A stretch of DNA of 64,000 nucleotides from Gammaproteobacteria bacterium (GCA_021731365.1 JAKFXL010000017.1:41755-105754); one strand, 5' to 3'; counted from the stretch's first letter, positions 6,338 through 7,969 are shown. Translations and numbers: made by a program. Notes: generated by a model from the letters alone, not told the origin.

Positions 6338-7969
6338 GCCAAGGCGCTATCGCCCGCCGCTCAGCTCAAAGGCGGGCATGCGGAAGAGCGACTCTTGCAA
6401 GGAAAACTCGCGCCAGCGCAGCGCCCGGAACTTAAACAGGGTGCATCTGCCTTGAAGGAGACAGCATCGCTACGCAAGCGGTCAGATCAGGCCAATACAT
6501 TTTGTTGTCTGCAGCGCAAGATCGAGCGCGGAAGCAACACGGGCTGGGGCGGTTTGTGGTGGGTCACTGATGGCAAGGCACTCTGGGGCCAAATCGACAA
6601 AGGGTTCAATGTAGATCTATTTGCCCTTCAAACAGATCTGCAAGCGCAGAAACCAACGACTGAAGCCATTGACTCGGTACTTGAGTCGATCAACACTTTC
6701 ATCAAATTCTGGGATGGCCGCGACCAGATATACTACGCTGCGAATCCTGAACGAAATCAACCGATCAGTGCTGCCGAGCTCGCTGAAAAAATTGATGCGG
6801 AACTGACTGGCGGGCGTCAGGCCCTTGAGGCCGCAAAGGAATCGGCATCCATGCGAGAAACAAAAACGGGGCCTTCCGATGTCGCGCTGAAAGAAAAAAA
6901 GACACGGGTAAAAAAAGGGAATGCCACAGCTAATCCACGCGTGAGTGGATCAACCAAAGGCGAAGCGAGGGTGACGGATATTCCAGTGTCCATCACTTCG
7001 GCTACGAAACAACCAGATGTCTCTCCCACGCGAGTTAACCCCTCGGTCAAGCCTAAAGCGACCACTGTTAAGCCGCCACGAGGACCGTCAGCCAAGGAGC
7101 TAGAAGCTGCGCGTCAGGAGGAGCGCAGGCAGGCTAACGCAGTAAAGAAAGCGGAAAACGCGGAACGCCAAACGTCTGTAGCGAATTTCGGGAAGATACT
7201 CAGTGAAAAAACAAACTCCCTCATCACATCTGAGAAGATTAACCAATGGCAGACTTGGTCTGGTGAACTAGATACTTTAGTTACGAAGGCTAAGCAGAAC
7301 CCCAACCTCGAACCGGCGTTGAAGAAGCTCTACGATGAGTGGACCAAGAAGCTCGTAGAGAAACGGGAGGCCAATGAGATCGAACGGCGCGGAACCAAGA
7401 AGCAATGGGAAACCTGGACCGGACTCAATGACTACCGCGTGATCGAAAACCTGCCGGGGGCTATATTTACACCAGCGCGCGCGCCTACTCAGGGACCCAT
7501 GACTGAGCAGGGCGAGGGGCCGGCCGAGCAAAACGAGGCTCCGGCCCCGTTAGAGATTCATGTCACCTACGACACCAATTCGGTGCGGGCACCGACAGAC
7601 TCAATTAATGGGATGGCTGCCCCCCTATTGGTTGACCACCTGCTTAGCACCTACTCTGTGTGGCAGCGTATTCACGGCTCGCTCGAAACATCTTACGGAC
7701 CACCTTACCCGCACATTTATTGGGGAGGAGATGATCTTGGCTTAGGCGCAGCGCGTTACTCTCAATGGAATGCAATGCCCGAGGGTTGGTTGCCAGGGCC
7801 GGAAGGAGCCGTTGCCAAGACGAAAGTCGAATCGGTGCTGAACGACTATGTCGCCGATAACATCGTGCCGCTTGTGCAATCGCACCTGTCGAGCGTGATG
7901 TTTAAAGTCTATGTTTGGCCGATGTTCGCGGAGTTAAATTCGCCCTCCAACAAGGAAGTCGTCAAGTAG
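5738..7969 (+). CDS. DUF4157 (zincin-like HExxH) domain protein, paralog 2, with long unrelated C-terminal region
   Basis: 743 aa. The first ~200 aa are identical to the upstream paralog. After that comes an unrelated sequence: a K/E/A/T-rich low-complexity linker, then a globular C-terminal region (…HVTYDTNSVRAPTDSINGMAAPLLVDHLLSTYSVWQRIHG…). No TM anchor. Confidence 0.7.
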   Translation: MQKAEPQPAKVQNQPASQQRGGGVADSPQAEQIAQLEAMVAASSHQAALQKMADGMHNSLRQRTAQNFLEGINNSPKMVAQRMRHEQMFGVAQLEKQAEAKPNNTGLPDNLKSGIENLSGMSMDNVKVHYNSDQPAQLNALAYAQGSDIHLAPGQEQHLPHEAWHVVQQAQGRVQPTMQMKEGMLVNDDKGLEHEADVMGAKALSPAAQLKGGHAEERLLQGKLAPAQRPELKQGASALKETASLRKRSDQANTFCCLQRKIERGSNTGWGGLWWVTDGKALWGQIDKGFNVDLFALQTDLQAQKPTTEAIDSVLESINTFIKFWDGRDQIYYAANPERNQPISAAELAEKIDAELTGGRQALEAAKESASMRETKTGPSDVALKEKKTRVKKGNATANPRVSGSTKGEARVTDIPVSITSATKQPDVSPTRVNPSVKPKATTVKPPRGPSAKELEAARQEERRQANAVKKAENAERQTSVANFGKILSEKTNSLITSEKINQWQTWSGELDTLVTKAKQNPNLEPALKKLYDEWTKKLVEKREANEIERRGTKKQWETWTGLNDYRVIENLPGAIFTPARAPTQGPMTEQGEGPAEQNEAPAPLEIHVTYDTNSVRAPTDSINGMAAPLLVDHLLSTYSVWQRIHGSLETSYGPPYPHIYWGGDDLGLGAARYSQWNAMPEGWLPGPEGAVAKTKVESVLNDYVADNIVPLVQSHLSSVMFKVYVWPMFAELNSPSNKEVVK

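Follow-up and report, generated by a model that had tools for sequence, protein, structure and literature searches.

A rare, unannotated C-terminal tail as the candidate cargo region of a DUF4157-containing protein from a gammaproteobacterium

Two adjacent open reading frames (ORFs) on one strand of a contig from a Gammaproteobacteria bacterium (GCA_021731365.1, JAKFXL010000017.1:41755-105754; the 64,000 nucleotides analyzed are referred to here as the window) begin with the same leader and DUF4157 domain and end in unrelated sequences. This arrangement raises the question of what the long C-terminal tail of the second product, paralog 2, contributes to the protein. The original prediction proposed that the tail carries a candidate novel effector domain delivered by the module shared with paralog 1; the shared module and the variable, cargo-like end were both recovered in our analysis, but a delivery machine was not seen in the scanned parts of the window. 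Sequence comparison supports a reading of the tail as that part of a DUF4157-type polymorphic effector which varies and bears the cargo. For the protein as a whole, the explanation that we favor, with a confidence that stops just short of even, is that paralog 2 is a modular PVC-metallopeptidase (DUF4157) cargo delivered by injection, with an exchangeable tail and a C-terminal payload that is probably an enzyme.

The two paralogs are identical base for base from the ATG for exactly 602 nt, as determined by exact-match extension and by alignment, and about 40 nt upstream of both start codons are also similar. Beyond the repeat the break is abrupt and the two products have no similarity. Since paralog identity stops there, position 6338, which had been proposed as the start of the tail, is confirmed as a true junction. 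The GC content at third codon positions (GC3) is 0.755 in the shared head and 0.49–0.62 in the tail, and this drop fits a mosaic origin. Both products match PF13699 (eCIS_core, formerly DUF4157) above the curated cutoff at aa 107-172, paralog 2 with 35.5 bits against a cutoff of 22. In paralog 2 the HExxHxxQ signature reads HEAWHVVQ (aa 161-168) and the downstream Glu lies in LEHEAD (aa 191-196). A constant head in front of variable C-termini, as is typical of PVC-metallopeptidases, is thus what the two paralogs display. The C-terminus of paralog 1 comprises 377 unannotated residues and has a hydrophobic end, SGLQVLGGLSILAIVGGLL, at aa 551-569.

The layout of the tail after the junction was defined by three alignments (A2, A7, and A10) together with an AlphaFold2 (AF2) model, and the features are collected in Table 1. 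The tail had been described as a charged, low-complexity linker followed by one globular domain; the linker stands, but in place of a single domain we find three conserved folded parts. Two of these had been missed, namely a folded module in front of the linker (aa 256-365, RGSNTGWGGLWWV...WDGR) and a helical bundle between the linker and the C-terminal domain (aa 478-565). The first, which we call the TGWG module, has the alignment consensus QRKIERGSNTGWG..W..W..ID.GFN.DL...WDGR..Y..P and is common to the relatives P0002, P0003, P0005, and P0008-P0014; its invariant residues in alignment A10 are Q, R, G, T, G, W, G, W, W, D, and N. The low-complexity tract rich in K, E, A, T, and P proved real by its aromatic gap, its charge, and its entropy: 150 residues (aa 334-483, between Y333 and F484) are free of W, F, and Y, a run with a probability of ~2e-4 given the aromatic frequency of the protein, the charged fraction within the run reaches 0.40–0.43, and windowed entropy there falls to 3.0–3.3 bits compared with 3.6–3.8 elsewhere. 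The C-terminus is indeed rich in aromatic residues, with W, F, and Y making up 10.9% of aa 606-743, and the four peptide strings quoted in the original prediction are all present in paralog 2.

Table 1. Features of the locus and of related loci. Positions refer to the window unless a contig is named.
Feature	Position	Strand	Basis or remark
Paralog 2, whole gene (743 aa + stop)	5738..7969	+	intact ORF; PF13699 match
Paralog 1 (577 aa): leader and DUF4157 as in paralog 2, C-terminus unrelated, hydrophobic end	3886..5619	+	
Shared 5' module, aa 1-200	5738..6339	+	602 nt identical to paralog 1 3886-4487
N-terminal leader, aa 1-106, Q/A/S/P-rich, hydrophobic residues scarce	5738..6055	+	presumed loading signal (composition)
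DUF4157 / PVC-metallopeptidase domain, aa 107-200	6056..6337	+	Pfam match; HEAWHVVQ and LEHEAD
Junction segment, aa 201-255, poorly conserved, paralogs part here	6338..6502	+	alignment
TGWG module ('RGSxTGWG'), aa 256-365, CLQRKIERGSNTGWG..W..W..ID.GFN.DL...WDGR..Y..P	6503..6832	+	alignments
Disordered basic spacer, aa 366-477 (112 aa), K/E/P/A/T-rich	6833..7168	+	
Helical bundle, aa 478-565	7169..7432	+	AF2, predicted local distance difference test (pLDDT) 81-95
P/G/E-rich variable loop after conserved YRVI strand, aa 566-605	7433..7552	+	alignment A7; pLDDT 61-71
C-terminal domain, alpha+beta, aa 606-743	7553..7966	+	45-62% identity to homologues
Alternative cargo domain in second position (slot 2), …GSYGYVQYLEEVGDGLTGDHQPSGAAVKESIR…	L013 2146-3042; L009 7014-7754		no Pfam or PHROGs match
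Tae4 amidase (PF14113), type VI secretion system effector	587-1090	-	
Rap1a (PF18602), type VI secretion system immunity	1072-1683	-	

Conservation is distributed unevenly along the tail, as identity between relatives and the window protein amounts to 35–46% in the TGWG module, 22–30% in the spacer, 33–53% in the bundle, and 45–62% in the C-terminal domain, making the last the most conserved region and the spacer the least. In the spacer the sequence drifts while length and composition stay: in five of the five relatives that span its full length it measures 104–135 aa, with a charged fraction of 0.31–0.47, a P/A/S/T fraction of 0.35–0.46, a net charge of +5 to +12, and at most 7% of W, F, Y, I, L, M, and C. 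The near-invariant positions of the C-terminal domain in A7 (H608, T610, D612, R644, H646, E650, P658, H659, Y661, W662, D666, G668, G670, R673, Y674, and W677) are mainly polar or aromatic. Because the stretch from about aa 256 to aa 743 is conserved as a unit within a small family, it may be regarded as coding sequence under constraint and not as a product of chance. Structure prediction from a single sequence gave a mean pLDDT of only 40 for the whole tail, with the spacer modeled as coil only. For aa 478-743 the predicted template modeling score was 0.70 and the mean pLDDT 77; the bundle was predicted confidently, the C-terminal domain partly with low pLDDT, and no fold match was obtained.

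The family to which this tail belongs is very small. When phmmer was run exhaustively with aa 201-743 against 1.84 billion representative proteins, it recovered 13 relatives besides the query, 14 proteins in all. Four of them (P0002, P0003, P0004, and P0005) can be aligned to almost all of the tail at 36–48% identity, P0006 and P0007 (60–64% identity) are pieces of its C-terminal part, P0008-P0011 and P0013, which are short fragments, match aa 256-306 only, and P0012 and P0014 match the TGWG module and part of the region that follows. A profile search added three further close relatives of P0005, and the family amounts to about ten clusters among billions of proteins. Intact ORFs with the same four-part layout occur in at least four separate lineages at 36–50% identity. 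Word-indexed searches, one with the 543-aa tail and one with aa 568-743 as query, returned the protein itself or nothing, and one of them missed the query's own entry, apparently because low-complexity words filled the candidate list; negatives from indexed searches with queries so rich in low complexity are not to be trusted, and it was index-free HMMER that found the relatives. Scans of genomes and metagenomes for loci with single proteins found nothing, and a scan with a three-sequence alignment recovered only one locus, that of a Dermatophilaceae metagenome-assembled genome (MAG), three times (L001-L003). When viral contigs were scanned, neither the TGWG module nor the C-terminal domain gave a match, and a tblastn search of plasmids found no member of the tail family, only the DUF4157 part being matched. 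The best such plasmid match, in Fulvitalea, is likewise an orphan effector: no injection cluster lies within 20 kb of it.

All full-tail relatives that can be placed lie in high-GC or actinobacterial DNA: P0002 in the Dermatophilaceae MAG, P0003 on a contig of 67% GC, and the P0005 group on a contig of 70% GC. Full-tail relatives start with a short leader containing 'LALQRxAGNxA' or 'SP.MMAQR'. In the P0005/P0015/P0016 group the gene calls start at an internal Met and the ORF runs on upstream (L005, ~330-520); the extension reads LLALQRTAGNAA…QRRFERGSGTGWG and includes the leader motif, so that this group has the full leader and the TGWG module. The tail homologue in the Dermatophilaceae MAG lies directly 3' of an acVLRF1/baeRF release-factor-like gene (PF18859) at the end of a suf operon (L003 8078-8851, L001 4705-5478). 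Ten nucleotides 5' of P0003, an ORF cut by the contig end (L004 1-747) carries a 'VLQR' motif and has no Pfam match; the two may form a tandem effector pair, as in the window.

The relatives that are most informative for function end in a different domain. P0014 runs from DUF4157 through the TGWG module and a long helical region to an RNase of family PF00545, and the gene after it encodes a Barstar, which scores 25.6 bits where the cutoff is 23.4. In P0012 the order is the same except that DUF4157 is missing, again with a PF00545 tip, and a barstar-like ORF similar to that of P0014 lies 3 nt downstream. As in paralog 2, the pattern 'QRK.ERG..TGWG...W..D..N...WDG' stands right after the leader or DUF4157 and is followed by a long non-globular or helical stretch and a tip; the difference is that the tip of P0014 and P0012 is a known RNase with an immunity gene, whereas that of paralog 2 is an unrecognized domain without one. 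Because of these RNase and barstar pairs, the TGWG module is found in genuine toxin-immunity genes, and because the module precedes an RNase tip in both proteins, the C-terminal domain of paralog 2 holds the position of the RNase. The original prediction had named the lack of homologues in other toxin loci as grounds for abandoning it; this outcome is escaped only indirectly, through the TGWG module, as the relatives of the C-terminal domain itself do not lie in recognizable toxin loci. Two genes 5' of P0014, a caspase-domain protein (PF00656) cut by the contig end (L006 2-736) has a weak Phage_tube_2 match (E 0.0014), and a nitroreductase-like ORF lies between it and P0014.

Exchange of the tail is also apparent between strains. 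Three syntenic contigs, two from European Nucleotide Archive (ENA) metagenomes (L009 and L010) and one from a MAG labeled Pseudomonadota bacterium (L013, GCA_034376985.1), have 91–94% DNA identity to the window across paralog 1 and keep the order of a 425-aa gene (minus strand), paralog 1, the gene in slot 2, and RNase D (minus strand); L009 and L010 continue with MCP, SulP, and beta-CASP genes. The protein in slot 2 has 246 aa in L009 and L010 and 298 aa in L013, and lacks the DUF4157 core in all three. In L013 it begins with the 90-residue leader of the window paralogs, and in L009 and L010 the gene call starts within this leader. The cargo, of approximately 200 aa, is unrelated to the tail in the window. 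A tip that differs between strains, as in classical polymorphic toxins, was therefore observed here, and since the other strains carry different cargo in slot 2, only the window strain has the 540-aa tail and, preceding it, the perfect copy of the paralog 1 head. In L009 and L010 paralog 1 is called as two ORFs (204 + 394 aa; L009 4957-6742), which is a frameshift or an assembly error. A further lead concerns a [LIVMA]-Q-R motif found directly 5' of every cargo, whatever its type, for example VMQRYVEVGG in paralog 1, CLQRKIERGS in paralog 2, VMQRMFSVGK in slot 2 of L013, and VLQRAVTGQ in the upstream ORF of L004 (sites in the window at 6503-6540 and 4555-4590, and in L013, L004, P0002, P0003, and P0008-P0014); with a mild enrichment (p ~0.03 per protein), it could be a landmark of processing or of recombination.

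That no known toxin family would be recognized in the tail was borne out by all family and fold libraries searched. Searches with aa 201-743 at permissive thresholds gave no credible match in NCBIfam, PADLOC, or PHROGs, and neither did Pfam at E ≤10 with sub-segments and with all ten members of A7; PF00545 in particular was found by Pfam neither in the window protein nor in any A7 member. Single-sequence searches and A7 and A10 profile searches of PDB sequences gave no match, and the TGWG module matched nothing in Pfam or PDB. Foldseek with the model of aa 478-743 returned nothing with E <1 from PDB and BFVD, which is a weak negative. The C-terminal domain thus matches no known family in sequence searches, and the statement that its predicted structure has no known fold is likewise a weak negative. 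Patterns of HNH, LAS/M23 (HxxxD), and ADP-ribosyltransferase enzymes were looked for by eye and rejected as unsupported; for LAS/M23, HxxxD is matched by 'HVTYD', but an HxH is missing and the secondary structure prediction does not give an all-beta domain.

The comparisons above show the layout of the tail, its pattern of conservation, the swapping of cassettes, the positional equivalence to an RNase toxin, and the lack of a known family; from these we infer a delivery route, a payload role, an enzymatic nature, and a target as follows. The constant aa 1-200, a leader and an apparently intact HExxHxxQ...E zincin, would direct the protein into a contractile injection machine, process it, or both: published work on the class suggests that the leader would target the protein to the contractile injection particle, and that DUF4157 may process or accompany the cargo. 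The TGWG module, shared with toxins that have other tips, is probably an adaptor or processing module, and the spacer may keep the modules apart or permit an extended state in the tube. The payload would be the helical bundle and the small alpha+beta C-terminal domain, the latter being, as its invariant His, Asp, Arg, Glu, Tyr, and Trp constellation suggests, an enzyme and probably a hydrolase. Because no immunity gene is adjacent in the resolved loci, its target is probably absent from the producer, being in a eukaryote or a distant organism, or else the domain may be inactive until delivered. A more far-reaching proposal, unlikely when taken as a whole, is that aa 478-743 constitute a new toxin fold with H608, D612, R644, H646, E650, H659, Y661, W662, D666, R673, Y674, and W677 at the catalytic site and a non-bacterial target, and that the TGWG module is a general, hitherto undescribed pre-toxin module of injected cargo in Pseudomonadota and Actinomycetota. 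A non-bacterial target would account for the missing immunity gene, and a pre-toxin module might serve, for example, as a substrate or docking site of the DUF4157 peptidase.

The surroundings of paralog 2 bear on the explanation that we favor. No same-strand ORF, and with it no immunity gene, lies immediately 3' of the gene, whose stop codon (7967-7969) is followed 10 nt later by the end of a convergent RNase D gene at 7979; the 118-nt gap between the paralogs holds no ORF either. The gene next to the Dermatophilaceae homologue is likewise convergent (PF04228). The two resolved loci that carry the C-terminal domain, in the window and in the Dermatophilaceae MAG, have no adjacent immunity gene, and the other contigs end within a few hundred bases. 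Delivery genes were sought among the ORFs of the window up to ~26 kb and from 46 to 64 kb; the interval of 27-46 kb, judged by the sizes of its ORFs alone, looks like a gene cluster for the cell wall and cell division. The scanned remainder consists of housekeeping genes (LpoA/RsmI, ArgJ, CoaBC, ArgB, RadC, and others) or other effectors. Among the housekeeping genes are an IS200-like Y1 transposase (PF01797, 17289-17831) and a dynamin-family GTPase (PF00350, 60398-62386). On the minus strand, divergent from the DUF4157 genes, lie the unannotated 425-aa gene and a 272-aa gene (1569-3727), the former with weak similarity to beta-propeller or S-layer repeats. Both (the second as a gene of 271 or 272 aa) are kept beside the DUF4157 genes in L009 and L010, and a functional link to the effectors is possible.

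Several of these results weigh against injection-delivered enzymatic cargo. No sheath, tube, baseplate, or AAA+ gene was found among the scanned ORFs, so that linkage to a contractile injection cluster was not observed in the window; 88% of known extracellular contractile injection system (eCIS) toxins lie within ten genes of such a cluster (Danov 2024). DUF4157 is present in none of the other proteins that carry the C-terminal domain, and the best-resolved relative, that of Dermatophilaceae, stands among housekeeping genes, with the suf operon and acVLRF1 on one side and a convergent PF04228 peptidase on the other; no injection-system gene was found within the 20 kb of that locus. DUF4157 is dispensable for the loading of AlgoCIS (bioRxiv 10.64898/2026.05.27.728243), which leaves its role in paralog 2 uncertain. 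No catalytic fold was recognized in the C-terminal domain, and the block with the most invariant residues, aa 638-697, was modeled at a pLDDT of only 44–71, which weakens both the enzyme reading and the negatives of the fold searches.

It is conceivable, though doubtful, that the C-terminal domain is not a toxin at all and instead has a binding, targeting, or structural role, such as binding a receptor or partner or docking in the machine, with no enzymatic payload. The lack of an immunity gene in both fully resolved loci, the failure to detect an enzymatic fold or family, the small and loop-rich appearance of the predicted domain, and the housekeeping setting of the actinobacterial homologue would all be in keeping with such a role; its position in place of an RNase toxin among TGWG-module relatives, the polymorphism of the slot between strains, as with toxin tips, and invariant residues that are mainly His, Asp, Glu, and Arg and not those of a hydrophobic core argue for a toxin. 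We regard it as quite unlikely that the DUF4157 leader couples paralog 2 to the spike of a type VI secretion system (T6SS), making it a T6SS effector and not eCIS/PVC cargo. The Tae4/Rap1a pair 2-5 kb upstream indicates that the strain probably has a T6SS, but the pair forms a separate low-GC island (GC 37–46%; GC3 0.33–0.39 against 0.68–0.74 in its neighbors) that is missing from L009, and its proximity is for these reasons treated as incidental. VgrG, PAAR, Hcp, and adaptor genes were absent among the scanned ORFs, and the tail relatives reside in high-GC or actinobacterial DNA, a group in which a T6SS is not known. On the other side, DUF4157 does occur occasionally in T6SS effectors (the portion of Danov 2024 that cites Wood 2019; Zhang 2012).

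Very unlikely, in our estimation, is a classical antibacterial polymorphic toxin with its immunity encoded elsewhere, for which the 425-aa or the 272-aa minus-strand gene would be the candidate. Their retention beside the DUF4157 genes in both metagenomic contigs would suit an immunity function, and the RNase-tipped TGWG relatives are immunity-linked and so probably antibacterial. However, the same two neighbors accompany other slot-2 cargo in L009, so that neither can be a cargo-specific immunity gene, the Dermatophilaceae locus has no counterpart of either, and the convergent RNase D leaves paralog 2 without a same-strand successor. Least of all do we expect that the tail is a leftover, in decay or without function, that was swept along when the conserved 5' module recombined, an extremely improbable account despite the great rarity of the tail in databases and its restriction to the window strain among the related loci recovered: the ORFs are intact across separate lineages with one layout, and conservation peaks at the C-terminal domain. 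Injection-delivered, modular DUF4157 cargo accordingly remains our preferred explanation of paralog 2.

If the C-terminal domain is an active effector, the large pool of unannotated cargo known for contractile injection systems, in which new enzymatic activities and means of engineered protein delivery are being sought, would gain a further family. How long cargo is arranged for loading or release may be informed by the TGWG module and by the basic spacer with its conserved length, and the locus is a clear natural case of cassettes being exchanged next to a conserved 5' module, beside a perfect repeat of 602 nt. What is new is a rare cargo family within a well-known architecture, as an unannotated C-terminus is the rule and not the exception among DUF4157 proteins; nothing here is unexpected for the class, and no long-standing question is opened.

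The closest known systems are the PVC-metallopeptidase or DUF4157 toxins, in which a constant peptidase at the N-terminus, with HExxHxxQ and a downstream Glu, precedes highly variable toxin domains, many without immunity genes (Zhang 2012). DUF4157 is a marker of eCIS toxins, whose linkers are often very long (Geller 2021), and among 1130 predicted DUF4157 toxins 983 lack any other annotated domain (Danov 2024). Paralog 2 resembles them in its leader and zincin, its long linker, its variable C-terminus, and its pairing with a paralog of the same head, as well as in the frequent absence of an immunity gene and the usual lack of annotation of the C-terminal domain. It differs from typical members in that no injection cluster was seen in the scanned window, and in that its variable part is a composite that is found elsewhere only without DUF4157. 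The AlgoCIS cargoes Cgo1 and Cgo2 of Algoriphagus machipongonensis, in which the order is leader, DUF4157, and C-terminal domain (bioRxiv 10.64898/2026.05.27.728243), are like the paralogs in having a disordered N-terminal loading sequence, DUF4157, and a variable C-terminus, and in that two proteins share a leader. No relation to their C-terminal parts turned up in searches with the paralog 2 tail, and loading has been demonstrated experimentally for Cgo1 and Cgo2, whereas for paralog 2 it is only inferred. Tme of Streptomyces davawensis is unlike paralog 2 in its size of >2000 aa, its transmembrane helices, its tape-measure homology, and its location inside an injection-system cluster. It is a DUF4157 effector with approximately 70% disorder and an active C-terminal nuclease, and it shares with paralog 2 the order of an N-terminal DUF4157, a very long disordered or coiled-coil middle, and a small C-terminal domain.

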